NCBI GenBank assembly: GCA_030837965.1
Contig: JAUTXP010000013.1
Location: 11,080-75,079 of the forward strand
Length of the DNA: 64,000 bases
From: Acidimicrobiaceae bacterium
GTDB taxonomy: Bacteria; Actinomycetota; Acidimicrobiia; Acidimicrobiales; JAUTXP01
Direction: 5' to 3'
In this document: positions 42,459 to 56,937 of the stretch, one piece after another
Position numbering within the stretch: the stretch's first letter is position 1
Layout of the letters: each line of letters starts with the position of its first letter
Notes under the pieces: generated by a model
Databases searched by the model: none
What the model was told of the DNA's origin: nothing
What the model saw: only the letters and a program-made list of their open reading frames with translations
Translations under genes and position numbers: made by a program

Positions 42459-43120
42459 CCGATTCCTCCTGGCAGTCGGTTGCGCAGCTCGACGTCGACG
42501 TTCTCGGTGAACGGCTGCGGCCCTGGGTTCGAGTCGGAGATGACGGTGACGTGCACGCGGATGGCGCAGTTGGCCACGTCGTCGGGGATGGCCAGGCCCA
42601 CCAGGTCCTGGTTGTGCTGGTTGTAGTACCGAAGGAAGGGCGTGCCCGACTCGTTGTTGCGGACTCGGGTCAGCTTGGCCGTGGTCCGCACGATGGCGCC
42701 GCCGGGGCCGGTGAGCTCCTTGCGGGTGATGATCTGGGTGGCCGGGTCGTAGACCCAGCGCACGTAGGTCTGGGGCCCGGCCGACGGGCCGAGGGCCAGT
42801 TCGAGCGAGTTGGTGTAGTCAGCGGCGGTGGCCGTCACCAGGCGCTGCATGGGGTTGGCCGAGCGGATGTCGCGGGCCATCTCCTGCAGGAAGAAGCGCA
42901 CGTTCTGCTCGTTCGACACCAACGCCTGCGTGCGCCGCTCGTGCTTGGTCAGCACCTCGAGGATGCTGAAGAACATGGCCAGGACACCCAGCAGGATGCC
43001 GCACACGACCACGACCTCGACCATGGTGTAGCCGCCTTGGCGCTTGCCTTCGGTCTTGGCTTCGCGCTCAGTCTCGTGCTCGGTCTCGTGCTCGGCGTGG
43101 CGCTCGTTTTGAATCAGCAT
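42449..43120 (-). CDS. PilW-like minor pilin
   Basis: RQGG|YTMVEVVVV prepilin motif, MARDIRSA, C-terminal VELRN. Confidence 0.8.
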   Translation of the reverse strand: MLIQNERHAEHETEHETEREAKTEGKRQGGYTMVEVVVVCGILLGVLAMFFSILEVLTKHERRTQALVSNEQNVRFFLQEMARDIRSANPMQRLVTATAADYTNSLELALGPSAGPQTYVRWVYDPATQIITRKELTGPGGAIVRTTAKLTRVRNNESGTPFLRYYNQHNQDLVGLAIPDDVANCAIRVHVTVISDSNPGPQPFTENVDVELRNRLPGGIGCG

Positions 43121-44349
43121 GTCGTCGCTCCGCTGGCCTTGACGCACACGTTGCCGATGGACGCCGTCTGGGTCGACCCGATGTAGACGGTGATGGTGTG
43201 GTTGCCCGTGCTCCACTGGGTGTTGCCGTCGAGGGTCGCCTTGTAGGACGAGCCCGACTGGAGCGTCAGGGTGGCCGTGGTCGGGCTGCTGCTGGTGGGG
43301 CTGTACCGGACGGTCAGCACGCTCGACGAGCAGTTGCCGTTCATGTTGACGGTCACGTTGACGTCGCTCAGCAGCTTGCCGCTGGAGTTCTTCTGCTCGG
43401 CCGTGGCCGGGGTGACGTTCATCGTCCCTGCCGCACAGGCCGCCGAGCTGGTGGAGGTGTTGGTGGTGGCCGACACGATGCTGGTCGGCGTCGAGCTCAA
43501 GCCGTTGGAGGCCTGGGCCCTGACCCGGAAGTAGTACGTGGTGCCGGGAGAAAGGCCCGCCACCGCGTAGCTCGTGTTGGCCGCGGGCAGCGAGCCGTTG
43601 GCCGTGGCCGCGCTGGCCATCGTGCTGTCAGGGGCGACCGAGTACTCGACGATCCAGTTGTTGACCGGAGGGTTGGAGGAGGACGGGGCCGTCCACGTGA
43701 GGTTCACCGTGGTCTCGCCGGGGACACCGGAAGGAACCGAGGCGGCCAGGTTGGTGGGGGCCGAGGGGGGGAAGGCGGCGGGCGCAGTGGTCGTCGTGGT
43801 GGACGACGCCGTAGCGCCGCGAGGACCGCCGTACGTGCCTTGGCCGCCGGGATACACGACTGAGTCCTGGCGCAGGTTGTGGCTGCCGCCGTCGTCGGTG
43901 TAGGTGACGACCACCGTGGTCCGCTTGTAGGCCTCGGTGTGGGTTGCGTCGGCGTCCATCCACACGATGTAGCGGGCCAGGTTGTAGGTGATGCCCTGCT
44001 GGACGTCCGAGCCGTTGGGTGCGACCTGGGGCGAGGTGATGGTGGACGAGGCCACGAAGTCGACGGTGGCGTGGCCCTCGTACTGCGACACGTAGCCCGC
44101 CTGGGTGGTGGCGAAGCCGAGCTGGCCGTAGGGGACGGCGTGCATGGCCTCGGTCTCGCGGATGGCCAGGCCCACGGCCGCGGTGCGACGCCCGCCCACG
44201 CCTGCGGTGCGCATGGCCCCGTAGAACACGCCCGCCACGGCCAGCATGACGATGGCCATGACCGTGAGCGCGGCCAGCAGCTCGACGAGGGTGAACCCGT
44301 CCTCGTCTCGCGTCATGGCCCGCGGACGCCGGCGCAGCAGGGACTGCAT
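43114..44349 (-). CDS. PilV-like minor pilin with fibronectin type III domain
   Basis: EDG|FTLVELLAAL prepilin motif; FN3: PSAPTNL..VNLTWTAP..Y..GLSPGTTYYFRVRA. Confidence 0.85.
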   Translation of the reverse strand: MQSLLRRRPRAMTRDEDGFTLVELLAALTVMAIVMLAVAGVFYGAMRTAGVGGRRTAAVGLAIRETEAMHAVPYGQLGFATTQAGYVSQYEGHATVDFVASSTITSPQVAPNGSDVQQGITYNLARYIVWMDADATHTEAYKRTTVVVTYTDDGGSHNLRQDSVVYPGGQGTYGGPRGATASSTTTTTAPAAFPPSAPTNLAASVPSGVPGETTVNLTWTAPSSSNPPVNNWIVEYSVAPDSTMASAATANGSLPAANTSYAVAGLSPGTTYYFRVRAQASNGLSSTPTSIVSATTNTSTSSAACAAGTMNVTPATAEQKNSSGKLLSDVNVTVNMNGNCSSSVLTVRYSPTSSSPTTATLTLQSGSSYKATLDGNTQWSTGNHTITVYIGSTQTASIGNVCVKASGATTC

Positions 44350-44356
44350 AGAGGAG

Positions 44357-44384
44357 GTATCGCCTCACCGGGCATCGACCTTGA
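44357..44384 (-). promoter_or_regulatory. Sigma-28-like promoter (leaderless) for minor pilin operon
   Basis: TCAAG-N17-CGATAC then 7 nt to ATG 44349. Confidence 0.75.
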
Positions 44385-46063: not shown

Positions 46064-47772
46064 TGCGGGCTCCCATTCGTGTAGCGGTCGATGCGTCGGG
46101 ACACGGCCTGGCTGGTGAGCCTGGCCGTCGACTGGAAGGTGACGATCTGGCTCGCCCCCTCGCCGCTCTTGGTCGAGTTGGGCACCCACAGTCCGGTGAA
46201 CTCGGTGAGGTCGCCGATGCGGAACAGCCAGCGGGCCGTCGACGTCTGGTCGAAGCCCTTGCCCTGGAACGTGATCTGGCCGATGCCCGCGGCCGCAGTC
46301 GGCGTGCCCGCGGCCACCGGCGTCCCTGGTGCCGTCTCGGCCGCCTTTTGGCCTTGGAAGCTGACCAGCCACACGTCGGCCGGGATGACGGTGGCGATGT
46401 CGTTGAACACCCGCGTCCAGGCCACGTCGTTGCGCAGCACGCCGGTGACTTGGGCTTGACGCTGCTGGAGGTCGGTCTGGAGGGTGGTCACGTCCTGGAG
46501 CCGGGCCAGTTCGGCCTGGCGCTGGGCCGCGACCTGCTCGGCCTCCCGGGCCTTGCCCTTCTCCGTTTTCACCTTGCCCTGCTGGGCCAGCCAAAGGGCC
46601 AGGAGGAGGGCGGCCACGCCGCCCACGCCCACGAACGCGGCCGCGGCCTGGCGGCGCTGCTCGCGCACCACGGCCACTTCCTGGGGCAGCAGCGAGATGC
46701 GGCGCACGCCCTTGGTCGGCTCACCGGCCAAGGCCAGGCCGATGGGCACCGTCATCAACGGCTCGTACTCGGCGAGCTGGGCCTGCGACAGGCGCACGGC
46801 ACCGATCTTCAATCCGGCCAGCGGATGAGCGGGCTCGACCCGTCCACCCAGTTGCGACTGGAGCCGCTCCATGAGACCGGGGAGGCGGCTGCCGCCGCCG
46901 GTCACCAGCACCCGCCCGATGGGCGACGACTGCGACTGGGCCAGGTAGTAGTCGAGCGAGCCGCGGATCTCCTCGACCAGCGGGCTCAGCCGATCGGACA
47001 CGACCTGGCCGGCGCGGGCCAAGGACGCGTCGCCCGAGCCGATGTCGGCTCTGCGCTTGAGGTCTTCAGCGCTGTCCAGGTCGACGTCGAGGTCGCGGGC
47101 GATGGCCTCGGTCACGTCGTCGCCCCCGACCAGCAGGACGCGCACGAAGCGGGGGATGCCCTGCTCGTGCACGACCACGTTGGTGACGCCGCCGCCGATG
47201 CACACGATGGCCTCGGCGCTGCCGTCGGTCGTGAAGGACTGGGTGGTGCGGTCGAACAAGGACCGGACCAAGGCGAAGGGGATGACGTCGACCGCGGTGG
47301 CCGACAGGCCCGCGCCCTGCACCGCGGCCAGATGGGTCCTGACCATGTCCCGCTGGGCCGCGGCCAGCAGGATGCGCATGCGGGGCTCGCCGTCCGGGCT
47401 CACCAGCTCCTCGAGGATCTGGGAGTCGAGGATGGCGTCCTCCACCGGGATGGGGATGAGTTCTTGGGCCTCGAACTGGAGGGCGGCGCGCAGGTCCTGC
47501 TCGGTCATCTGCGGCAGCTCGGCCTGGCGCACGATGACGCGCTGGTTGGCCACGCCGACCACGACCCGCTTGGTCTTGAAGCCGCCCTCGCTCCACAGCC
47601 GCTTGATGGCGGCGGACACGGCGCCGACATCGGCCACCTCGCCGTCGCGAATGGCGCCGGGGGGCAGCGTCACCTGGGCGAAGCGCACGAGGGTGGGCTG
47701 CCCGCCGACCTGGAGCTCGACGGCCCGCACTGCGTAGGTGCCGAGATCGAGTCCAACGACCCTGGTCGGCAT
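46060..47772 (-). CDS. pilM: Fused PilM-PilN
   Basis: Actin-like PilM (VGLDLG, AQELIPIP, CIGGGVT, EIRGSLDYY, TGGGS, IGLAL) continues in frame into PilN (ISLLP, TM, WTRVFNDIATVIPADVWL). Confidence 0.9.
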   Translation of the reverse strand: MPTRVVGLDLGTYAVRAVELQVGGQPTLVRFAQVTLPPGAIRDGEVADVGAVSAAIKRLWSEGGFKTKRVVVGVANQRVIVRQAELPQMTEQDLRAALQFEAQELIPIPVEDAILDSQILEELVSPDGEPRMRILLAAAQRDMVRTHLAAVQGAGLSATAVDVIPFALVRSLFDRTTQSFTTDGSAEAIVCIGGGVTNVVVHEQGIPRFVRVLLVGGDDVTEAIARDLDVDLDSAEDLKRRADIGSGDASLARAGQVVSDRLSPLVEEIRGSLDYYLAQSQSSPIGRVLVTGGGSRLPGLMERLQSQLGGRVEPAHPLAGLKIGAVRLSQAQLAEYEPLMTVPIGLALAGEPTKGVRRISLLPQEVAVVREQRRQAAAAFVGVGGVAALLLALWLAQQGKVKTEKGKAREAEQVAAQRQAELARLQDVTTLQTDLQQRQAQVTGVLRNDVAWTRVFNDIATVIPADVWLVSFQGQKAAETAPGTPVAAGTPTAAAGIGQITFQGKGFDQTSTARWLFRIGDLTEFTGLWVPNSTKSGEGASQIVTFQSTARLTSQAVSRRIDRYTNGSPQ

Positions 47773-47978
47773 CAGGAGTTGCCTCGCTTCAAGTAGGCGT
47801 TCACGTCTTCCTCGGTGAGCCGGTAGCTGCGGCCCACGCGGGCCGAGCGAAGCTCGCCGGAGGTGATGAGTCGGTAGACCGTCATCTTGGAGACCCGCAG
47901 CAGGTGCGCGACCTCAGCAACCTTCAGCCAGCGCTGCTCGGAGTTGGTGGGCACGTGGGTGGACACGTGGGTGGACAT
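47772..47978 (-). CDS. Small BldC/Xis-like (HTH_17) DNA-binding protein
   Basis: LKVAEVAHLLRVSKMTVYRLITSGELRSARVGRSYRL; TGA overlaps pilM ATG. Confidence 0.88.
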   Translation of the reverse strand: MSTHVSTHVPTNSEQRWLKVAEVAHLLRVSKMTVYRLITSGELRSARVGRSYRLTEEDVNAYLKRGNS

Positions 47979-48037
47979 GTCGGCCTCGATCTGGGCGAGC
48001 GCCGCCCGCTTTTCGGGAACTCTACGCACTCCTCGCT

Positions 48038-48164: not shown

Positions 48165-48935
48165 TCAGAGGCCGTACCAGCGGAGGATGGGGCCGCCCGC
48201 GAACACGGCCAGCACGGCGCCCGCGGCCAGGAACGGGCCGAACGGGATGCGGTCCTTGCGGCTCCTGACCTTGGCTGCGATGAGGGCCAGGCCGATCACG
48301 CTCGACGTCAAGAAGGCGAGGAACAGCCCCACGAGGACGTAGCCGACGCCGAGCCAGCCCAGGGCCACCCCGTTCAGCCCGGACAGGCGCACGTCGCCGA
48401 AGGCCATGCCCTTGGGGACGGCGAAGTGGACGAGGAACAGCAGCACGAACCCGAGGGCGCCCCCGGCCCCGGCCCGGGCCAAGTCGTCCCACCGGCCGGT
48501 CAGGGCGGCGGCGCCGACCAGCAGCACAGCCAGCCCGGCCAGCGTGGGGTACACGACGCGGATGGGCAGGAGCTGGTGATCGAGGTCGATGGCGCTCAAC
48601 ACGACGAGGCCGGCCACCCACACGAGGAAGGCGGGCAGGGCCCAGTCGGCGCCGAAGCGGGCCGCGACCGCCGCGAACAAAGCGCCGGTGAGCAATTCGA
48701 CCAGCGGGTAGCGGGCCGAGATCGGATTGGCGCAGAAGTGGCACTTGCCCCGCAGGGCCAGCCACGAGACGACCGGGATGTTGTCGATGCTGCGCAACTG
48801 GTTCCCGCAGTTGGGACAGTGCGAGCGCGGGTGCACGATCGACTCCCGGCGCGGCACCCGCCAGATGACCACGTTGAGGAACGATCCGACCAGCAGGCCG
48901 AACACCGCGCATCCGGCCACGAGGAACGCGGTCAT
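48165..48935 (-). CDS. pilD: Prepilin peptidase/N-methyltransferase (A24)
   Basis: GSFLNVVIWRVP, RSHCPNC..DNIPVVSWLALRGKCHFC, ISARYPLVEL, AIDLD, GMAFGDVRL, IPFGPFL. Confidence 0.95.
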   Translation of the reverse strand: MTAFLVAGCAVFGLLVGSFLNVVIWRVPRRESIVHPRSHCPNCGNQLRSIDNIPVVSWLALRGKCHFCANPISARYPLVELLTGALFAAVAARFGADWALPAFLVWVAGLVVLSAIDLDHQLLPIRVVYPTLAGLAVLLVGAAALTGRWDDLARAGAGGALGFVLLFLVHFAVPKGMAFGDVRLSGLNGVALGWLGVGYVLVGLFLAFLTSSVIGLALIAAKVRSRKDRIPFGPFLAAGAVLAVFAGGPILRWYGL

Positions 48936-49017: not shown

Positions 49018-49048
49018 GAGCGGGCGGACCCGAAGGCCCGCCCGCTTC
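49018..49048 (-). terminator. 3' hairpin after pilin A
   Basis: AGCGGGCGGGCC-TTCG-GGTCCGCCCGCT; no long U-tract. Confidence 0.7.
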
Positions 49049-49066
49049 GAACTGACTGCCGGTTGC

Positions 49067-49564
49067 CTACCAGCCGGTCTTCACTCCGGTGATGGTCGCC
49101 GACGTGCCGTCCTCGCCGTTGCAGGTGAGGTCGGCCTTGTAGAAGTAGGTCCCCGCGGCGCCGCCGATGGCCACTTCGAGGACGCTGAAGCTGGTACCCG
49201 ACTTCGACACCTTGCCGATGCAGACGCCGTTGTTGTCGCCCGCGGTGACCGCCGGCTTCAGGGCCACGCCCACGGCCGCGGTGGTGCCGCTGCCCGCCAC
49301 GTAGGTGAGGGCCGACTCGATGCCGGTCAGAGTGCCGACGGTGGCCGTGTAGGCCTGGTTGTCGGTGTAGAAGGTCTTCTCCGCGGTCAGCGCGTTGCGG
49401 ATGTCGGATTGCGCGGCCCGGTCCTGGGCCCGCTGGCGGGCGCCGAGGAAGGTCGGGATGGCAATGGCCAACAAGATGGCGATGATCAGCACCACGACCA
49501 TGAGCTCGATGAGGGTGAAGCCGTCCTCGTCGCGCTCCAGCCGCTTGCGCAGGGTGTGAAGCAT
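49067..49564 (-). CDS. Major type IV pilin paralog A (165 aa)
   Basis: EDG|FTLIELMVVVLIIAILLAIAIPTF; C-terminal Cys pair; SD AAAGGA. Confidence 0.95.
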   Translation of the reverse strand: MLHTLRKRLERDEDGFTLIELMVVVLIIAILLAIAIPTFLGARQRAQDRAAQSDIRNALTAEKTFYTDNQAYTATVGTLTGIESALTYVAGSGTTAAVGVALKPAVTAGDNNGVCIGKVSKSGTSFSVLEVAIGGAAGTYFYKADLTCNGEDGTSATITGVKTGW

Positions 49565-49653
49565 GTGGGTCTTCCTTTCGTGACTGCTGTGCAATTGACG
49601 GGGATACGAGCCCTGCTCCCCACCCTCTCGGGTCCCCGCAGTCACGGGGCGGT

Positions 49654-49749
49654 CCTCCAGGCGGCTCGGCCGGCCTTCCGTCGTCGTTGACGGTGTGGGC
49701 CCCGGAGCTTTGCGTCCCCGCCTTCCGACGGGTTTGCCATTGACAAGAG
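49654..49749 (-). ncRNA. Cyclic di-GMP-I (GEMM-I) riboswitch, copy A
   Basis: GGCAAA-CCCGTC-GGAA-GGCGGG-GACGCAAAGC...GCCGAGCCGCC matches the GEMM core GGCAAACC..GNRA..GGGACGCAAAGC. Confidence 0.9.
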
Positions 49750-49767
49750 CGACTGCTCGCAAGACAG

Positions 49768-49795
49768 GTATCGCCCCTGGCGCGCGTTGACTTGA
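49768..49795 (-). promoter_or_regulatory. Sigma-28-like promoter of pilin A cassette
   Basis: TCAAG-N17-CGATAC. Confidence 0.75.
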
Positions 49796-49865
49796 GTGCT
49801 TTTCGCGCCCAACGCGGCCGAATGACTAGGTGCTTCGAAAGCGCCTGCGCCTCGCCCCGGGACGC

Positions 49866-49899
49866 GAAGAGGGCGGGCCCCGAAGGGCCCGCCCTCTTC
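49866..49899 (-). terminator. 3' hairpin after pilin B
   Basis: Perfect 15-bp stem GAAGAGGGCGGGCCC-TTCG-GGGCCCGCCCTCTTC. Confidence 0.8.
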
Positions 49900-49915
49900 A
49901 TCAAGCAGGTGTGGC

Positions 49916-50413
49916 TTACCAGCCGGTCTTCACACCGGTGATGGTGGCCGACGTGCCGTCCTCACCGTTGCAGGTCAGGTTGGCCTTGTAGTAGTAGGTC
50001 CCGGCTGCGGTGCCGGTCGCGACCTCGAGCATGCTGAAGTTCGTGCCCGACTTGGACACCTTGCCGATGCAGACGGCGTTGTTGTCAGCGGCAACCATGG
50101 CCGGCTTCAGGACGACGCCGACCGCGGCCGTGGTGCCGTTGCCTGCGGCATAGGTCAGCGAGGACTCGATGCCGGTCAGGGTGGCGACGGTGGCCGTATA
50201 GGCCTGGTTGTCGGTGTAGTACGTCTTCTCAGCCGTGAGGGTGTTGCGGATGTCGCTCTGGGCCGCACGGTCCTGGGCCCGCTGACGGGCGCCGAGGAAG
50301 GTGGGGATGGCGATCGCCAACAGGATGGCAATGATCAGCACGACGACCATGAGCTCGATGAGGGTGAAGCCGTCCTCATCCCGCTCCAGCCGCTTGCGCA
50401 GGGTATGAAGCAT
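49916..50413 (-). CDS. Major type IV pilin paralog B (165 aa)
   Basis: First 57 aa identical to A and C; variable C-terminal domain; SD AAAGGA. Confidence 0.95.
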   Translation of the reverse strand: MLHTLRKRLERDEDGFTLIELMVVVLIIAILLAIAIPTFLGARQRAQDRAAQSDIRNTLTAEKTYYTDNQAYTATVATLTGIESSLTYAAGNGTTAAVGVVLKPAMVAADNNAVCIGKVSKSGTNFSMLEVATGTAAGTYYYKANLTCNGEDGTSATITGVKTGW

Positions 50414-50499
50414 TTGGATTGTTGTCCTTTCGTGACTGCAATTGACGGGTTGCGAGTCCTGCTCCCACCCTCTCGGGCTCCCCGCAGTCACGGGGCGGT

Positions 50500-50594
50500 C
50501 CTCCAGGCAGCTCGGCCGGCCTTCCTCTCCGCCGAGAGGGATGGGCTCCGTGGCTTTGCGTCCCCGCCTTCCAACGGGTTTGCCTTTGTCAGAG
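50500..50594 (-). ncRNA. Cyclic di-GMP-I (GEMM-I) riboswitch, copy B
   Basis: GGCAAA-CCCGTT-GGAA-GGCGGG-GACGCAAAGCCACGG...GCCGAGCTGCC; distal P3 CCTCTC/GAGAGG replaces CCGTC/GACGG. Confidence 0.9.
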
Positions 50595-50612
50595 CGACTG
50601 CTCGCAAGACAG

Positions 50613-50640
50613 GTATCGCCACCGCCATGGCCCGCCTTGA
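50613..50640 (-). promoter_or_regulatory. Sigma-28-like promoter of pilin B cassette
   Basis: TCAAG-N17-CGATAC, spacer sequence different from copy A. Confidence 0.75.
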
Positions 50641-50666
50641 GCGAATTCTCTCGATAGGGCATGACA

Positions 50667-50698
50667 GAGCGGCGGACCCCCGAGGGGGCCCGCCGCTC
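50667..50698 (-). terminator. 3' hairpin after pilin C
   Basis: GAGCGGCGGGCCCC-CTCG-GGGGTCCGCCGCTC. Confidence 0.75.
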
Positions 50699-50733
50699 GT
50701 GCACGACAAAAGCTGTGCAGTAAGGAGTGCTGC

Positions 50734-51231
50734 CTACCAGCCGGTCTTGACGCCGACCGTCGGGGCGGCCGCGCCGTCCTCGCCGGAGCAGCTCAAGCTG
50801 GCCTTGTAGTAGTAGGTGCCTGCATTGGTTCCGGAGGCCACGTCGAGGACGCTGAAGTTGGCGCCCGACTTCGAAGCCTTCGAGATGCAGATGCCGTTGT
50901 TGTCACCAGCGACGGTGCCCGCCTTGAGGGCGACGCCGACCGCAGCCGTGGTGCCGTTGCCGGCCACATAGGTGAGGGCGGCCTCGATGCCGGACAGGGT
51001 GGCCGTGGTGGCCGTGTAGACCTGATTGTCGGTGTAGAAGGTCTTCTCGGCAGTCAGGGCATTGCGGATGTCGCTTTGGGCCGCACGGTCCTGGGCCCGC
51101 TGGCGGGCGCCGAGGAAGGTCGGGATGGCGATCGCCAAGAGGATGGCGATGATGAGCACGACGACCATGAGCTCGATGAGGGTGAAGCCGTCCTCATCCC
51201 GCTCCAGCCGCTTGCGCAAGGTGTGAAGCAT
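50734..51231 (-). CDS. Major type IV pilin paralog C (165 aa)
   Basis: Same N-terminus; most divergent C-terminal domain. Confidence 0.95.
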   Translation of the reverse strand: MLHTLRKRLERDEDGFTLIELMVVVLIIAILLAIAIPTFLGARQRAQDRAAQSDIRNALTAEKTFYTDNQVYTATTATLSGIEAALTYVAGNGTTAAVGVALKAGTVAGDNNGICISKASKSGANFSVLDVASGTNAGTYYYKASLSCSGEDGAAAPTVGVKTGW

Positions 51232-51311
51232 CTGGGTTCCTTTCGTGACTGCAATGGATGTGCGAGTCGCTGGCCCCTTGCCCTCTCGGGTCCCCGCAGT
51301 CACGGGGCGGT

Positions 51312-51407
51312 CCTCCAGGCAGCTCGGCCGGCCTTCCGTCGCCGTTGACGGTGTGGGCCCCGGTGCTTTGCGTCCCCGTCTCCCAACGGGTTTGCCCTTG
51401 TTCGAAG
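51312..51407 (-). ncRNA. Cyclic di-GMP-I (GEMM-I) riboswitch, copy C
   Basis: GGGCAAA-CCCGTT-GGGA-GACGGG-GACGCAAAGCACCGG...GCCGAGCTGCC. Confidence 0.9.
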
Positions 51408-51424
51408 CACTGCTCGCATGCCTG

Positions 51425-51453
51425 GTATCGGACGGTTCGCGACCACCCCTTGA
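51425..51453 (-). promoter_or_regulatory. Sigma-28-like promoter of pilin C cassette
   Basis: TCAAG-N18-CGATAC. Confidence 0.7.
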
Positions 51454-51687: not shown

Positions 51688-52185
51688 CTAGTTGGGCCAG
51701 GCGCTCTGCCAGCCGGGGTCGGTGATCAACGGGACCGAGCAGGTGGCGCCGCTGGGCACGACGGCCTGATAGTGGGTGCCGGTCGACGAGCCCGACATGA
51801 TGTCGCGCAGGTAGTAGCAGCGTCCGGCCTTGCTGCGGCCCACCACAACCACGGTCTGGGCCGTGCTCGGGTAGTCCTGCACCTCGATGTAGACGACGCC
51901 GGGCGCCTCGGACCCGTCGAGCGCGGAGTTGGTCCACTGGAGCGCGGGCTCCAACGTCCGCATGGCTACAGGGTCCGCCGTGTAGCTCTGCTTCTCGTTG
52001 TAGTAGACGCGCGCCGCGGTGAAGGCGTTGCGCACGTTGGACGCCACCGCCCTGTCGTTGGCCGTCTTCTTGGCCCCCATAAAGGTCGGGATGGCCACGC
52101 CCAACAGCACGGCGATGATCAGCACCACCACCATGAGCTCGATCAGGCTGAAGCCGTCCTCGGTCCCCTGCCCCCCTGCGTGCAC
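51688..52185 (-). CDS. Fourth type IV pilin (divergent, no riboswitch)
   Basis: EDG|FSLIELMVVVLIIAVLLGVAIPTF; GTG start inferred just after pilC stop. Confidence 0.88.
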   Translation of the reverse strand: MHAGGQGTEDGFSLIELMVVVLIIAVLLGVAIPTFMGAKKTANDRAVASNVRNAFTAARVYYNEKQSYTADPVAMRTLEPALQWTNSALDGSEAPGVVYIEVQDYPSTAQTVVVVGRSKAGRCYYLRDIMSGSSTGTHYQAVVPSGATCSVPLITDPGWQSAWPN

Positions 52186-52199
52186 CGGTTTCCGCCCGT

Positions 52200-53423
52200 C
52201 TACTTGATGAGCTTGATGATGTTGAACATCGGCATGTAGAGCGACACGACCATGCCGCCGACGGCGCCGCCGAGGACGACGATGAGGGCAGGCTCGAGCA
52301 GCGACGTCAACGCGGCCACGGTGGCCTCGACCTCTTGCTCGTAGAACTCGCCGATCTTGTCGAGCATGGTGTCGACCGCGCCCGTCTCTTCGCCCACGGC
52401 CAGCATCTGCGTGACCATGGCCGGGAAGATGGCGTGCTCGGCCATGCGCTTGGCGATGGGCTCGCCCTGCTTCACGCCGTCCTGCACGTCGTGCACGGCG
52501 CGCGAGGCCACGGTGTTGCCCACCGTGTCGGCCGTGATCTCCAACGACTCGAGGATGGGGACGCCGGAGCGCAGCAGCGAGGCCAGCGTGCGGGCGAAGC
52601 GGGTGAGCGCCGTCTTGTGCACGAGCTTGCCGAAGACCGGCACCTTCAGCTTGAAGGCGTCGAACACGGCCCGGCCCTTGTCGGTCTCGATCCACCGCTT
52701 GAACAAAAAGACGGACACGGCCATGAGCACCAGCACGATGGGGAAGGCGGTGACCAGCACAGAGGACACCAGCAGCAGCAACCGGGTCGGCAGCGGCAGC
52801 GTCCCGCCCAAGTCGTGGTAGAGGCCCTTGAACATCGGGACGATGAACAACAGCATGGCCGTGACGATGCACAGCACCAGGGCCAGCACCGCGACCGGGT
52901 AGGTCATGGCCGACTTGATCTTGTGCTTCAGCTCGACCTGCTTTTCGAGCGTGTCGGCCAACTGCAACAGCGTCTGGTCGAGCACGCCGCCGGTCTCGCC
53001 CGCCCGCACCATGGCGATGTAGAGGCGGCTGAACACCTTGGGATGGCGGCCCATGGCCTGGGAGAGCGACGAGCCCTTCTCCACGTCTTGGCGCACCTCG
53101 TGGACCACGCCGGCCAAGGCCTTGCTCTCGGTCTGCTCGGCCAGGATGTTCAAGGCGCGAAGCAGCGAGAGGCCCGAGTCGATCATGGTGGCGAACTGGC
53201 GGTTGAACACGGCCAGGTCCTTGAGCTTGACCTTGCCCGCGCCCATGCCAGGGATGCGCAGCTCCTTCTGGAGCCCGCCCGTGGCCTTCTTGTCGATGGC
53301 CAGCGGGACGTAGCCCATCTGGCGCAGCTTGTTGGCGACCAGCGTGGTCGAGTCGGCCTCGAGGGACCCCTCGAGCACCTTCCCCTGCTTGTCGCGGACC
53401 TTGTACTGGTAGGTCTCAGCCAT
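52200..53423 (-). CDS. pilC: Type IV pilus platform protein PilC (GspF family)
   Basis: FNRQFATMIDSG, AGETGGVL, KIKSAMTYP, FARTLASLLRSGVP, GEETG, LLEP, YMPMF. Confidence 0.96.
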   Translation of the reverse strand: MAETYQYKVRDKQGKVLEGSLEADSTTLVANKLRQMGYVPLAIDKKATGGLQKELRIPGMGAGKVKLKDLAVFNRQFATMIDSGLSLLRALNILAEQTESKALAGVVHEVRQDVEKGSSLSQAMGRHPKVFSRLYIAMVRAGETGGVLDQTLLQLADTLEKQVELKHKIKSAMTYPVAVLALVLCIVTAMLLFIVPMFKGLYHDLGGTLPLPTRLLLLVSSVLVTAFPIVLVLMAVSVFLFKRWIETDKGRAVFDAFKLKVPVFGKLVHKTALTRFARTLASLLRSGVPILESLEITADTVGNTVASRAVHDVQDGVKQGEPIAKRMAEHAIFPAMVTQMLAVGEETGAVDTMLDKIGEFYEQEVEATVAALTSLLEPALIVVLGGAVGGMVVSLYMPMFNIIKLIK

Positions 53424-53434
53424 CTCTTCGTCTC

Positions 53435-55033
53435 CTAACGGGCCCCGCCGATGAGGCGGCGGAGGTCGTCTTCATTGGCACAACGCTCGATGGCCATCTC
53501 CAAGGAGATGGCGCCTCGGCGCACCAGGTCGGCGAGCGACATGTCCATGGTCTGCATGCCGTAGCGGCCGCCTGCCTGCATGGCCGAGTAGATCTGATGG
53601 GTCTTGCCCTCACGGATGAGGTTGCGGACCGCGGGTGTGGCCACCAGCACCTCGGATGCAACGGCCCGGCCTCGGGCGTTCATCGTCGGGATGAGCTGCT
53701 GGGTGACGATGCCTTGCAACGAGGCCGCGAGCTGCACCCGCACCTGCTGCTGCTGATGGGCGGGGAACACGTCGATCACGCGGTCGACCGACTGGGGCGC
53801 GTCCTGCGTGTGCAGGGTGGCGAAGACGAGGTGGCCCGTCTCGGCCGCGGTCAGCGCGGTGGAGATGGTCTCGAGGTCGCGCATCTCGCCCACGAGGATC
53901 ACGTCGGGGTCCTGGCGCAGGACGTGCTTCAAGGCGTTGGAGAAGGAGTACGTGTCCTCCCCCACCTCCCGCTGGTTGATCACCGCCATCTTGTGGTGGT
54001 GCAAGAACTCGATCGGGTCCTCCACCGTCATGATGTGGCAGGGCTTGCGGGCGTTGATGATGTCGATCAGCGAGGCCAGGGTCGTGGACTTGCCGGAGCC
54101 GGTCGGGCCGGTGACGAGCACCAGGCCGCGGGGAAGGTCGGCGAACTGGTTGACCGAGGGCGGCAGGCCGAGGCGGTCCATGGGAACGATCTCGAAAGGG
54201 ATCACGCGCATGACCGAGCCGACCGAGTCGCGCTGGAGGAAGACGTTCACGCGGAAGCGGCCCACGCCCGGCACCGAGTGCGACGTGTCCAGCTCCAACT
54301 CGTTCTCGAAGCGCTCCCGCTGCTTCTGGGTGAGGATGGCGTAGATCATCCGCCTGATCTCCGAGCCGTTCATCATCGGGAACTCGGTGAGGGGCTTGAT
54401 CTCGCCGTGGATGCGCACGCTGGGGTGCAGGCCGACGGTCAGGTGGAGGTCGGAGCCTCCGAGGTCGACCACCCGCTCGAGCAGGTCGTTGACATGCAGC
54501 TCGCCGCGCATGCCCTCGGCGCCGAGCATGTTGGGCGCCTCGGACTGCGAGGACTCGTCGGCCACGGTGATCTCGAGGTCGCCGTCCTCCTCGGAGGCCG
54601 GGGGGCCGTACATCTGGTTCACGACCTTGCGCAGGTCGCCCCGAGTGGCCAGCGCGGCCTTGATGCTCCAACTGGTGGCCTGCTCGAGCTCGGACTTGGC
54701 GTCGGGGTTGCTGGGGTCGAGCATGGCGACCAGCAGGTCGCTGCCCTCGATGTCGACGGCCACGGCCTGGTGCTTGTGGGCCAGGGCCGCGGGGATCAGC
54801 CGGTCCAGGGTGGGATTGACGTTGCGCACGTCGAAGTCGACGAAGTCCATGCCGACCTGATGGGCGACCGCGGCGACCAGGTCCTTCTCCCCCACCAGCC
54901 CTTCGGCCAGGAGGAGTTTCGAAAGGGGAACGCCCTCGGTCGCCTCGCGGTCGAGGAGCTGTTCGAGCGTGTCCCGAGAGAGGACTTTCCGCTCAACGAG
55001 GAATTCGCCCAGTCGGCGCGAAGCTGCCTGCAT
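53435..55033 (-). CDS. pilT: Retraction ATPase PilT with extra N-terminal MshEN/GspE-N domain
   Basis: SDLHL, RFRVNVF, GPTGSGKSTT, EDPIE, RQDPDVILVGEMRD, PilT signature AVRNLIREGKTHQI and GMQTMD; ~175-aa N-extension starting RRLGEFLVE. Confidence 0.93.
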   Translation of the reverse strand: MQAASRRLGEFLVERKVLSRDTLEQLLDREATEGVPLSKLLLAEGLVGEKDLVAAVAHQVGMDFVDFDVRNVNPTLDRLIPAALAHKHQAVAVDIEGSDLLVAMLDPSNPDAKSELEQATSWSIKAALATRGDLRKVVNQMYGPPASEEDGDLEITVADESSQSEAPNMLGAEGMRGELHVNDLLERVVDLGGSDLHLTVGLHPSVRIHGEIKPLTEFPMMNGSEIRRMIYAILTQKQRERFENELELDTSHSVPGVGRFRVNVFLQRDSVGSVMRVIPFEIVPMDRLGLPPSVNQFADLPRGLVLVTGPTGSGKSTTLASLIDIINARKPCHIMTVEDPIEFLHHHKMAVINQREVGEDTYSFSNALKHVLRQDPDVILVGEMRDLETISTALTAAETGHLVFATLHTQDAPQSVDRVIDVFPAHQQQQVRVQLAASLQGIVTQQLIPTMNARGRAVASEVLVATPAVRNLIREGKTHQIYSAMQAGGRYGMQTMDMSLADLVRRGAISLEMAIERCANEDDLRRLIGGAR

Positions 55034-55251: not shown

Positions 55252-56937
55252 CTAGGCCACGACCCGGAGGATCTCCTCCAGGGAGGTCTTGCCGTTGCGG
55301 ACCTGGATGAGGCCCGCCTGGCGCAGCGTGAGCATCCCCTGGGCCATGGCCATCTTCTTGATGTCCTCGGAGTGCTCCCGGTCCACGATCAGGCGCTCGA
55401 TGTCCTCGGTCACGGTCAGCACCTCGTGGAGGGCGAACCGGCCCAAATATCCGGTCTTGCCACAGGCCGAGCAGCCCACGGCCCGGAACAGCTCGGGCTG
55501 CTCCTCGTCGGCGAACAGCTCGACGTCCCAGCCCGCGGACTGGAGCTCGCTGGCCGTGGCCCGGTACGGCTCCCTGCACTTGTCGCACAGCTTGCGGGCC
55601 AGGCGCTGGGCCACGATGCAGTCCAGGGCGCTGGCCACGAGGAAGGGCTCGACACCCATCTCGATGAGCCGGGTGGGCGTGGTGGCCGCGTCGTTGGTGT
55701 GCAGGGTGGACAGCACGAGGTGGCCGGTGAGGGCGGCCTCGATGGCGATGGTGGCCGTCTCCTTGTCCCGGATCTCGCCCACCAGCACGATGTCGGGGTC
55801 GGACCGCAGGATCGAGCGCAGCGCGGCCGCGAAGGTCATGCCCGCCTTGTTGTTGACCTGGACCTGGTTGATGCCGTTCAGCCGGTACTCGACAGGGTCC
55901 TCGACGGTGATGATGTTCTTCGAGTCCTCGTTGAGCACGTTCAGCGTGGCGTACAGGGTGGTCGACTTGCCCGAGCCCGTGGGCCCCGTGACCAGGATCG
56001 TCCCGTACGGCTTCTTGTAGGACTGCTCGAACCGCTCGCGCGCCGACTCCAGGAACCCCAGGTCGGTGAGCTTCAGCAGCGCGGTCGACTTGTCCAGGAT
56101 TCGCATGACGACCTTCTCGCCGTACACCGTGGGCAGGGTGGCGACACGCAGGTCGACCGCCTTGCCCCCGATGACCACGTTGATGCGGCCGTCCTGGGGG
56201 ATGCGCCGTTCGGCGATGTTGATCTCGGCCATGATCTTGAGGCGCGAGATGATCCCGGACTGGATGTTCTTCGGCGGGCGCATCTTCTCGTGCAGCACGC
56301 CGTCGATGCGGTACCGGACCCGCACGTCCTTCTCGCTGGGCTCGATGTGGATGTCCGACGCCCGCTCGGCCACCGCCTGGGTGATCAACAGGTTGACCAG
56401 CTTGACGATGGGCGCGTCCTCGACGACCTCCTTGATGTTGGAGAGGTCGTCGTCCACCTCGTACTCGCTCGACGCCTGGGCCGTGATGTTCTCGGCCTCG
56501 CCGTCCATGCGGGTGTGGCGGTCGATGGCGGCCAGGATCGAGTCGGGCGTGGCCATGATGACCCGCACGTCGCTCTTGGTGATGGTCCGGATGTCGTCGA
56601 TGGCGAAGACGTTGCCGGGGTCGGCCATGGCCAGGATGAGCTTGCCGTGCTCCCAGCCCACAGGCAGCGCCTGGTAGCGCCGGGCCAGTGACTCGCTGAT
56701 GAGGCCCACGGCGCTGGAGTCGATGCTGTAGTCGGCCAGGTCGACGTACTCGAGCCCCAACTGGGGGGCGAGGATGCGGTACAGGTCACCTTCGGTGACC
56801 AGGCCCCGCTCGATCAGGATGCGGCCGAGGAACTTGCCCGTCTTCGACTGTTCGTCGAGCGCGTCGTCCAGCGCCTCTCTGGAGAGGAGTCCTGCCGCCA
56901 CGAATTGGGCGCCGAGGAGGCGGTTTTCATCCGACAT
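55252..56937 (-). CDS. pilB: Extension ATPase PilB (GspE family)
   Basis: MshEN-like N-terminus, ASDIHIEP, RYRIDG, ERRIPQDG, GPTGSGKSTTLY, LRSDPD, tetracysteine Zn motif. Confidence 0.96.
   Translation of the reverse strand: MSDENRLLGAQFVAAGLLSREALDDALDEQSKTGKFLGRILIERGLVTEGDLYRILAPQLGLEYVDLADYSIDSSAVGLISESLARRYQALPVGWEHGKLILAMADPGNVFAIDDIRTITKSDVRVIMATPDSILAAIDRHTRMDGEAENITAQASSEYEVDDDLSNIKEVVEDAPIVKLVNLLITQAVAERASDIHIEPSEKDVRVRYRIDGVLHEKMRPPKNIQSGIISRLKIMAEINIAERRIPQDGRINVVIGGKAVDLRVATLPTVYGEKVVMRILDKSTALLKLTDLGFLESARERFEQSYKKPYGTILVTGPTGSGKSTTLYATLNVLNEDSKNIITVEDPVEYRLNGINQVQVNNKAGMTFAAALRSILRSDPDIVLVGEIRDKETATIAIEAALTGHLVLSTLHTNDAATTPTRLIEMGVEPFLVASALDCIVAQRLARKLCDKCREPYRATASELQSAGWDVELFADEEQPELFRAVGCSACGKTGYLGRFALHEVLTVTEDIERLIVDREHSEDIKKMAMAQGMLTLRQAGLIQVRNGKTSLEEILRVVA

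Follow-up and report, generated by a model that had tools for sequence, protein, structure and literature searches.

Why would a bacterium keep three copies of a pilin gene side by side, each behind a riboswitch of its own, and in which direction would the expected ligand, cyclic di-GMP (c-di-GMP), move their expression? The question is raised by a 64,000-nt stretch of DNA from an Acidimicrobiaceae bacterium (contig JAUTXP010000013.1, positions 11,080 to 75,079 of the forward strand; this whole stretch is called the window, and positions are counted within it). On the minus strand at 49018–51453 the window contains three head-to-tail units, each a complete pilin expression cassette. From 5′ to 3′ a unit consists of promoter boxes, a conserved GCGAGCAG, a 92-nt aptamer of the c-di-GMP-I class, an 83–91-nt linker ending with AAAGGA and the ATG, a 165-codon gene and a GC hairpin. 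The units are numbered from the highest coordinates, and transcription runs in the order 1, 2, 3 (coordinates are collected in Table 1). Of this anatomy we are highly confident. The complete statement that we propose, namely that the cassettes bind c-di-GMP through their leaders, that a linker helix controls the ribosome site and that the sign is OFF, we consider evenly poised between right and wrong.

The −35 boxes start at 51453, 50640 and 49795, which gives unit spacings of 813 and 845 bp. An earlier inspection of the letters of the window (the sequence-only reading) had described a unit of ∼820–850 bp occurring three times, with a conserved linker, an AAAGGA Shine–Dalgarno sequence and a strong hairpin in each, and all of these were recovered: the first 30 nt (GCCUGGAGGACCGCCCCGUGACUGCGGGGA) and the last 21 nt of the linker are identical in the three units while its middle is variable, the distance from AAAGGA to the ATG is 6, 11 and 8 nt (units 1 to 3), and the hairpins have perfect stems of 12–16 bp. 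Alignment of the three units gives a mean column identity of 84%. Pairwise identity is 54–71% in the promoter region (boxes kept, spacer scrambled), 81–87% in the aptamers, 76–82% in the linkers, 91–95% in the first 171 coding bases and 79–83% in the remaining ones. Residues 1–57 are identical in the three pilins in spite of 9, 12 and 14 synonymous differences per pair, just as the same reading had it. For codons 1–57 the synonymous divergence (dS) is 0.24–0.41 with 0 amino-acid changes; for codons 58–165 dS is 0.50–0.60, with a ratio of non-synonymous to synonymous divergence (dN/dS) of 0.15–0.37. The units thus read as old duplicates, each under purifying selection, that have diverged outside the N-terminal helix.

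Contigs from public soil metagenome assemblies span the junction of units 1 and 2 (50496–51115) as well as that of units 2 and 3 (49709–50366 or 49709–50272). They come from run X1 (0 differences), which is possibly the sample behind the window assembly, and from run X2 of a separate study (2–4 differences). Since both junctions are bridged in two runs of two studies, the triple array is not an assembly artefact. No RNA run that contains the locus was found. By all sequence indications a complete pilin expression unit, of a kind typical of the lineage, was duplicated in tandem long ago and now stands in three copies. Successive aptamers are separated by a 165-aa gene, a hairpin and a promoter, whereas in tandem riboswitches the aptamers are serial with no intervening gene; each copy would be an independent transcription unit.

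In a scan of the whole window, Rfam models detected three aptamers of the c-di-GMP-I clan (E-values 7e-8 to 1e-11), one in each cassette. The c-di-GMP-I covariance model, which the sequence-only reading had named as a check on its claim, was run and scored all three above the RF01051 gathering cut-off of 35 bits. The structure-preserving changes listed in that reading are all present in the Rfam alignments. Helix P2 reads CCCGUC/GGCGGG in unit 3; unit 2 has CCCGUU/GGCGGG, with a U-G wobble, and unit 1 CCCGUU/GACGGG, which makes a compensatory series of C-G, U-G and U-A. Distal P3 has been exchanged as a whole: where units 1 and 3 have CCGUC/GACGG, unit 2 has CCUCUC/GAGAGG. Among 26 aptamers of the order, 96.2% of the cells are paired, and both partners vary in eight of the 17 pairs. 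This set has a covariation score of 0.383; shuffles give 0.124, with 0 of 500 attaining the observed value, and sliding the partners gives no more than 0.121.

The aptamers do not differ at the pocket positions: each has a G preceding the GC of GGCAAAC, an A following ACGC and CC past P3. We take these positions to be the ligand contacts G20, A47 and C92 of the Vibrio cholerae riboswitch Vc2, and the claim of a G at the G20 equivalent holds in all three. An A at the first pocket position would suggest 3′3′-cGAMP, according to the available part of PMC9481103. With the canonical pocket letters kept in every unit, c-di-GMP is the expected ligand, and the three RNAs are expected to be canonical c-di-GMP sensors.

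One class assignment had to be weighed. Against RF03167 (c-di-GMP-I-GGC, gathering cut-off 59 bits) units 3 and 2 score ∼1 bit over the cut-off (60.4 and 60.2) and unit 1 falls under it (52.2); these scores may reflect lineage and GC content, as the three other c-di-GMP-I aptamers of the same genome also score 49.8–57.6 bits. The Rfam consensus lines have one core difference: directly after ACGC there is a G in RF03167 and an A in RF01051. We take this G to be the defining letter of the GGC variant, as we read the consensus lines. All three units read ACGCAAAG, with A and not G after ACGC; because of this letter and the canonical pocket we file them under the RF01051 class. The main text of Weinberg 2017 does not describe the GGC variant.

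The sequence-only reading had also placed a promoter in each unit. The conserved boxes are there, with a correction as to their kind: they are of the WhiG/sigma-28 type, and a sigma-70 consensus scan gave 0 promoter-like sites. All units have CTCAAG, N16 or N17, and then GGCGATAC or TCCGATAC. This agrees with the WhiG/FliA consensus, which in the available parts of the sources is T(A/C)AA or CTCA, N16–17 and GCCGA, in which the CGA at the centre is fixed and a single mismatch is tolerated (PMC12871210, PMC8325347). Of 19 pilin leaders of the order, 12, all three here among them, have a stricter motif, T[AC]AA-N16/17-(GC with at most one mismatch)CGATA, 22–30 nt upstream of the aptamer core; the other seven have near-matches as judged by eye. 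Genome-wide the strict motif has 15 matches vs four for the motif read backwards, and four of the 15 lie inside the pilus cluster, three in the cassettes and one at 44357–44384. GCGAGCAG is shared by the three units and most of the related leaders. The boxes would be read by WhiG-RNA polymerase.

The match at 44357–44384 (minus strand) lies upstream of the gene for an FN3 minor pilin of 411 aa (43114–44349) and ends 7 nt from its ATG; the transcript of this gene is probably leaderless. Elsewhere in this genome (G000; we label genomes G, contigs C and loci L) two of the best WhiG-type matches, G000:C77:37572 and C79:762 (TCAAC, N16, CCGATAA), stand 7–8 nt before ATGs, and the product near one of them, starting with MAEVLIVDDDP, looks like a response-regulator receiver.

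The genome encodes WhiG (equivalog NF004935, 388.3 bits vs a cut-off of 343) and an RsiG-like protein (PF22802, 74.7 bits vs a cut-off of 27, in two stretches; G000:C83:29190–29747, minus strand), for which a search of NCBIfam gave no family. Flagellin was not found in this genome, which is 97.9% complete. A six-frame genome search with the strict RsiG motif produced three matches, all resembling spurious Arg-rich frames, and was set aside. In Rubrobacter, c-di-GMP-armed RsiG sequesters WhiG, and WhiG promoters drive pilus genes, as given in the available part of PMC8325347.

Between the aptamer and the gene, the linker contains two segments that could pair. CGUGACUGC, 9 nt past P1, is exactly complementary to GCAGUCACG, a segment that ends one base before AAAGGA. 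In relatives the sequences at these two places are different yet again complementary (CGGUGAUG/CAUCACCG, GGUGAUGUC/GACAUCACC, UCUCCCU/AGGGAGA and CUCCUGCG/CGCAGGAG), and in some relatives the linker helix covers the ribosome site. In a comparison of own vs mismatched segments over 12 lineages, the mean longest helix is 7.42 vs 6.33 (nine of 2000 permutations reach it) and the mean duplex energy is −21.4 vs −17.5 kcal/mol (0 of 2000). Single-leader duplexes are mostly unremarkable against mononucleotide shuffles (1 to 131 of 200), and it is the cross-lineage permutation that separates own from foreign partners.

Two other pairings were considered and rejected. The 5′ flank (GCAGUCGC) can form 8 bp with the post-aptamer segment in units 2 and 3; 79–198 of 200 shuffles reach this, and the pairing is not kept in relatives. 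A long-range helix GCGAG/CUCGC proposed by RNAalifold has nearly invariant sides, with uncompensated changes of the 3′ side in L018, L231 and L234; on our reading of the alignment it is a local hairpin that compensates instead (GCGAGCC/GGCUCGC vs GCGGGCC/GGCCCGC). Directly before the last linker segment there is a further motif, CAUCCAUUG (51253–51261 in unit 1; CCGUCAAUUG in units 2 and 3). It is kept by sequence, with no covariation, across families (L018, L021, L089, L015, L019, L232 and L234), and motifs of this type pair with GUGGAU(G) after P1 in L231 and L234.

We propose that WhiG-RNA polymerase would transcribe each unit separately, that the leader RNA would bind c-di-GMP and that binding would alter access to the ribosome site via the linker helix. 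With the sign OFF, high c-di-GMP would mean less pilin translation, and the riboswitch would pull in the same direction as the switch formed by RsiG, c-di-GMP and WhiG, through which high c-di-GMP should shut the promoters down. Retention of the three copies would be due to differences between their globular domains, and not between their sensors.

One argument for OFF comes from a sibling in the same genome, L005 (G000:C6:50747–50836, minus strand), an aptamer of the same subtype that stands, with no linker, before a prepilin-like gene (MRDRRDDGFTLVELM...). Its ribosome site, GGAGG, lies within the 3′ strand of P1, 7 nt before the ATG, so that L005 reads as a direct OFF switch. In nearly all pilin leaders the P1 3′ strand is likewise ribosome-site-like (CUGGAGG). 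In the usual design, such a strand holds an anti-ribosome-site segment until the ligand closes P1. In L038, removal of the P1 3′ strand lowers the computed accessibility of the ribosome site from 0.34 to 0.05. Taken by itself, the OFF sign is for us close to a toss-up.

The folding tests comprised 10 leaders with the aptamer forced closed vs open and 18 leaders with vs without the P1 3′ strand (in the latter test the anchor of L002 was misplaced, and the ‘bound’ value of L005 is zero by construction); overall they gave no consistent sign. Several observations weigh against the reading that we have put forward. Accessibility of the ribosome site is equal with the aptamer closed and open in unit 2 (0.61/0.61) and unit 3 (0.35/0.35), and removal of the P1 3′ strand shifts it little or not at all in the same units (0.58/0.57 and 0.38/0.38). 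In unit 1 this removal raises accessibility from 0.46 to 0.60, which points to ON, and the same rise appears in L082 (0.40 to 0.55), L015 (0.60 to 0.69), L018 (0.64 to 0.73) and L089 (0.45 to 0.55). The linker helix of the three units stops one base before AAAGGA, leaving this site uncovered, and the 12 lineages used in the permutations are related, so that the permutation counts overstate their independence. The unit hairpins have no U-tracts, and their role as terminators is therefore one that we infer. Binding of c-di-GMP by RsiG relies on two E-x3-S-x2-R-x3-Q-x3-D motifs, according to the available part of PMC8325347, and the corresponding motifs of the RsiG-like protein, ADVLSYLRRLVQGRLD and ERKVSAQRNSLHDVAN, are imperfect, with four and three of the five fixed residues (S, R, Q and D kept and A for E in the first; E, S and R kept, H for Q and N for D in the second). 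Because of these imperfect motifs the anti-sigma layer may not respond to c-di-GMP.

The rises just listed speak for an ON switch with the same anatomy, in which c-di-GMP closes P1, frees the GGAGG stretch from a weak extension of the linker helix and opens the ribosome site. In the duplex, GG and CC of GGAGGACC pair with the CC before the ATG and with the GG of AAAGGA. The Clostridioides difficile pilin operon is reported to be induced by c-di-GMP. With its class II c-di-GMP riboswitch it makes a literature parallel, as far as the available part of PMC11477304 goes. Still, units 2 and 3 remain unchanged and L038, L232 and L234 shift the opposite way; the pairing of the post-aptamer segment with the 5′ flank, which in units 2 and 3 would make for a tidy ON design, does not exceed what shuffles give (79–198 of 200), and relatives have not kept it; and the sign would oppose the RsiG-WhiG logic. 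We regard the ON switch as a real though clearly weaker candidate than OFF. If it were correct and combined with shut-off by RsiG-WhiG, pilin production would be confined to intermediate levels of c-di-GMP or to a pulse.

The spacing seen in L005 suggests yet another arrangement, in which translation would start at a GUG 7 nt past GGAGGA, the ribosome site would be in the P1 3′ strand and the ligand would hide it directly; the 24–27 extra residues would go with the leader peptide. All three units and L065 have such a GUG in the reading frame of the pilin ATG (51302–51304, 50490–50492 and 49644–49646 in the units, minus strand), at the same spacing as in L005 and with linker lengths of 72, 78, 81 and 87 nt, though single-base gaps separate the aligned copies. 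However, an in-frame start within 22 nt past P1 exists in just seven of 15 leaders, and two of the 15 lack any start codon in that stretch; moreover, an AAAGGA of its own precedes the ATG, and the N-terminus counted from the ATG aligns with relatives. The GC content at third codon positions (GC3) in the pilin frame is 0.62–0.70 in the linker vs 0.90–0.96 in genes, and we read the linker as non-coding. We hold the alternative start to be the least probable of the readings considered here.

Control could also act on transcription elongation, through attenuation or Rho-dependent termination within the linker. The linkers do have GC hairpins, and the C-rich, G-poor CAUCCAUUG is kept in most related leaders; yet no hairpin followed by a U-tract was found in any of the three linkers, and a linker helix that ends at the ribosome site fits translational control. 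We think elongation control quite improbable and retain control at the ribosome site, with the sign OFF, as the working proposal.

How typical is this wiring of the lineage? The closest relatives of the pilins are from uncultured Acidimicrobiia and Actinomycetota. At 79 loci of pilin relatives (contigs from one genome per species) the covariance model found an aptamer just upstream in six and never two per locus; two to four pilin N-termini 550–700 bp apart are frequent at these loci. A search of 401 genomes of the order for the exact aptamer-plus-P1 pattern gave matches in nine, eight of them with one match each. The genome studied here has four, the three cassettes and the sibling before the prepilin-like gene on another contig, and no other of the ∼400 genomes in the order has more than one. 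Where enough DNA is present, the new leaders have WhiG-type boxes, GCGAG, the aptamer, a 77–96-nt linker and a pilin. Promoter-riboswitch-pilin units, as recognized by these features, recur in related Acidimicrobiia. In a genome of the same family (L024/L065, G001:C17) the contig begins ∼200 nt before the pilin riboswitch, and upstream cassettes could have been lost there at a repeat-induced assembly break.

These counts bear on the proposal made in the sequence-only reading that the aptamers have graded thresholds, so that the level of c-di-GMP would pick the pilin or the mix. The aptamers differ at 10–16 of 92 positions between units. P1 has 5, 5 and 4 pairs, one P3 pair varies (column pair 62/120: A-A in unit 1, C-A in unit 2 and U-A in unit 3), as does the P2 loop (GGGA in unit 1, GGAA in units 2 and 3), and the copies are old and have all been kept. 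On the other side, the pocket letters are identical, as are the segments after the aptamer and before the ribosome site, and the ribosome-site spacing of 6, 11 and 8 nt would yield unequal outputs with no difference in sensing. Moreover, tandem pilin paralogs with no riboswitch are common in relatives, so that retention of the paralogs needs no sensor-based reason. Unequal outputs of the units are possible, as easily from the ribosome sites as from ligand affinity, and nothing computed supports differences in affinity. Graded thresholds are in our view unlikely; most plainly, the locus reads as a family of pilins that diversified and retained its regulatory region at each duplication.

The pilins themselves are of the type IV major kind. 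Pfam N_methyl matches all three with E-values of 5e-9 to 1e-8, and they have a class III signal peptide with a short basic leader, G at −1, F at +1, E at +5 and a hydrophobic helix; the sequence is MLHTLRKRLERDEDG followed by FTLIELM. Residue 16 aligns to residue 1 of solved mature major pilins, with matches mainly over residues 16–115, and there are two Cys in the C-terminal half. The hairpins that close the units are probably terminators; a scan for terminators with U-tracts gave two terminator-like sites vs 1.7 expected, both within coding sequence. On the same strand, upstream of the cassettes, are alaS, mltG/yceG, a DUF4388 gene, pilB, a pilT-like ATPase, pilC and a divergent pilin-like gene, upstream of which there is no Rfam match. 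Downstream are pilD, a small helix-turn-helix (HTH) gene, a pilM-pilN fusion, pilO, the FN3 minor pilin, a DUF7305 protein and aroC. The small gene (47772–48029, minus strand, between pilD and the pilM-pilN fusion) is of the HTH_17 type (excisionase/MerR-like). Both pilus ATPases (53435–55033 and 55252–56937, minus strand) have an N-terminal MshEN domain (Pfam); we take MshEN to be a c-di-GMP-binding domain, in which case c-di-GMP may act at a third point, on the motors.

Table 1. Features of the pilin cassette array and its immediate neighbours, in window coordinates (ORF, open reading frame)
Feature	Coordinates	Strand	Evidence or detail
Unit 1 WhiG/sigma-28-type promoter (TCAA, 17-nt spacer, TCCGATAC)	51425..51453	minus	genome-wide motif search
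Unit 1 conserved GCGAGCAG, likely transcript 5′ end region (predicted)	51410..51417	minus	7 nt past −10 box
Unit 1 c-di-GMP-I aptamer	51315..51406	minus	RF01051 54.4 bits; RF03167 52.2 bits
Unit 1 linker	51232..51314	minus	segment b CGUGACUGC 51296-51304; segment c GCAGUCACG 51244-51252; AAAGGA 51238-51243
Unit 1 type IV major pilin, 165 aa	50734..51231	minus	ORF; Pfam N_methyl
Unit 1 hairpin, 14-bp perfect stem, no U-tract	50667..50698	minus	fold z-score −5.03
Unit 2 WhiG/sigma-28-type promoter (TCAA, 16-nt spacer, GGCGATAC)	50613..50640	minus	genome-wide motif search
Unit 2 c-di-GMP-I aptamer	50502..50593	minus	RF01051 59.0 bits; RF03167 60.2 bits
Unit 2 linker	50414..50501	minus	segment b 50484-50492; segment c 50431-50439; ribosome site 50425-50430
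Unit 2 type IV major pilin, 165 aa	49916..50413	minus	ORF; Pfam N_methyl
Unit 2 hairpin, 16-bp perfect stem, UUCG loop	49865..49900	minus	fold z-score −3.76
Unit 3 WhiG/sigma-28-type promoter (TCAA, 16-nt spacer, GGCGATAC)	49768..49795	minus	genome-wide motif search
Unit 3 c-di-GMP-I aptamer	49656..49747	minus	RF01051 58.9 bits; RF03167 60.4 bits
Unit 3 linker	49565..49655	minus	segment b 49638-49646; segment c 49579-49587; ribosome site 49573-49578
Unit 3 type IV major pilin, 165 aa	49067..49564	minus	ORF; Pfam N_methyl; solved major pilins
Unit 3 hairpin, 12-bp perfect stem, UUCG loop	49019..49046	minus	fold z-score −2.55
Fourth, divergent pilin-like gene, directly after pilC	51688..52206	minus	ORF; Pfam N_methyl
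Prepilin peptidase PilD, directly downstream of cassettes	48165..48935	minus	Pfam A24_N_bact; Peptidase_A24

A more far-reaching version would have c-di-GMP gate the make-up of the pilus three times, through RsiG-like/WhiG, through the riboswitch of each pilin and maybe through the MshEN motors, with leader thresholds that differ, so that the cell would change which of three surface-variant pilins it assembles as the level of c-di-GMP changes. It would have to rest on the differences between the leaders in P1 strength, one P3 pair, the P2 loop and ribosome-site spacing, and we give it a slim chance. If the sign of the riboswitch opposed that of the anti-sigma layer, pili would form only within a narrow range of c-di-GMP levels.

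Soil metagenomes were also searched. The variable-gap aptamer pattern gave no match in them, and a looser pattern gave at least 80 loci with at least 93 aptamers. Among the matches listed, a prepilin motif is present within 420 nt downstream in one of 93 aptamers (eight had <150 nt of downstream DNA); the looser pattern thus mostly caught other lineages and no further pilin cassettes. In L159, L169, L124 and L178 there are pairs of paralogous surface-protein genes, each gene with its own c-di-GMP-I aptamer, 1.06–1.62 kb apart, and such pairs show that repeated riboswitch-plus-gene cassettes are not unique to pilins. They resemble the present array in having the paralogous genes side by side, each behind a c-di-GMP-I aptamer, and differ from it in their products (an outer-membrane-protein-like pair and Ig-like repeat proteins), in having two copies and in belonging to other lineages. 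In L117, L122, L157 and L188 two aptamers are 140–240 nt apart on one strand, as in classical tandem c-di-GMP-I riboswitches. In this family of genomes the other c-di-GMP-I riboswitches, L001 and L002 of the genome studied here (G000:C82 and C64) and their relatives L007–L010, L012, L014 and L016, precede secreted proteins, one set of which is CAP/SCP-domain-like and one glycoside hydrolase-like (N-termini, by eye); the platforms of L001, L002 and relatives have CCCACG/CGUGGG and GCCCUCC/GGAGGGC alternatives.

Besides the metagenome pairs, four known systems come close to the cassettes. With V. cholerae Vc2 (RF01051) they share the two-hairpin aptamer, the GNRA loop on P2, the conserved core and the pocket letters; here, however, the aptamer is in the leader of a high-GC actinobacterial pilin gene behind a WhiG-type promoter, has an 83–91-nt platform and occurs once per repeated gene. 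As in the Rubrobacter RsiG-WhiG system, WhiG-type promoters are found in a type IV pilus cluster of a genome with WhiG and an RsiG-like protein and with no flagellin found, but here a c-di-GMP riboswitch follows the promoter and the c-di-GMP motifs of the RsiG-like protein are imperfect. The word riboswitch has 0 occurrences in the available text of two WhiG/RsiG papers, PMC8325347 and the 2026 preprint PMC12871210.

The C. difficile CD3513-03 switch is likewise a c-di-GMP riboswitch in the leader of a major pilin of a single-membrane bacterium; it differs in being of class II, with one switch per operon, no sigma-28-type promoter and no repeated cassettes in what is available of its description (PMC11477304). 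Tandem c-di-GMP-I riboswitches, of which the available part of PMC9481103 counts 347 doublets and 12 triplets including one triplet in Bacillus thuringiensis, are similar in number, with three c-di-GMP-I aptamers here within 2.5 kb. There the serial aptamers sit in one leader and sharpen the response of one gene (same source), whereas the three aptamers described here would act in parallel, since each has its own promoter, gene and hairpin. A literature search on c-di-GMP riboswitches with pilins turned up Clostridioides and review papers, none with the actinobacterial wiring. The parts are all of known kinds; their stacked wiring and the triplication were not found in print.

With a riboswitch placed straight after a promoter, and the sigma factor of that promoter restrained by an anti-sigma armed with c-di-GMP, one messenger would control one gene twice. 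The triplicate provides three natural leader variants in one cell, a compact test bed for the effects of aptamer and platform on the response, and with this locus one could test directly whether actinobacterial pili are produced at low or at high c-di-GMP. If the three leaders respond alike, the locus would simply be a diversified pilin family with inherited regulation.

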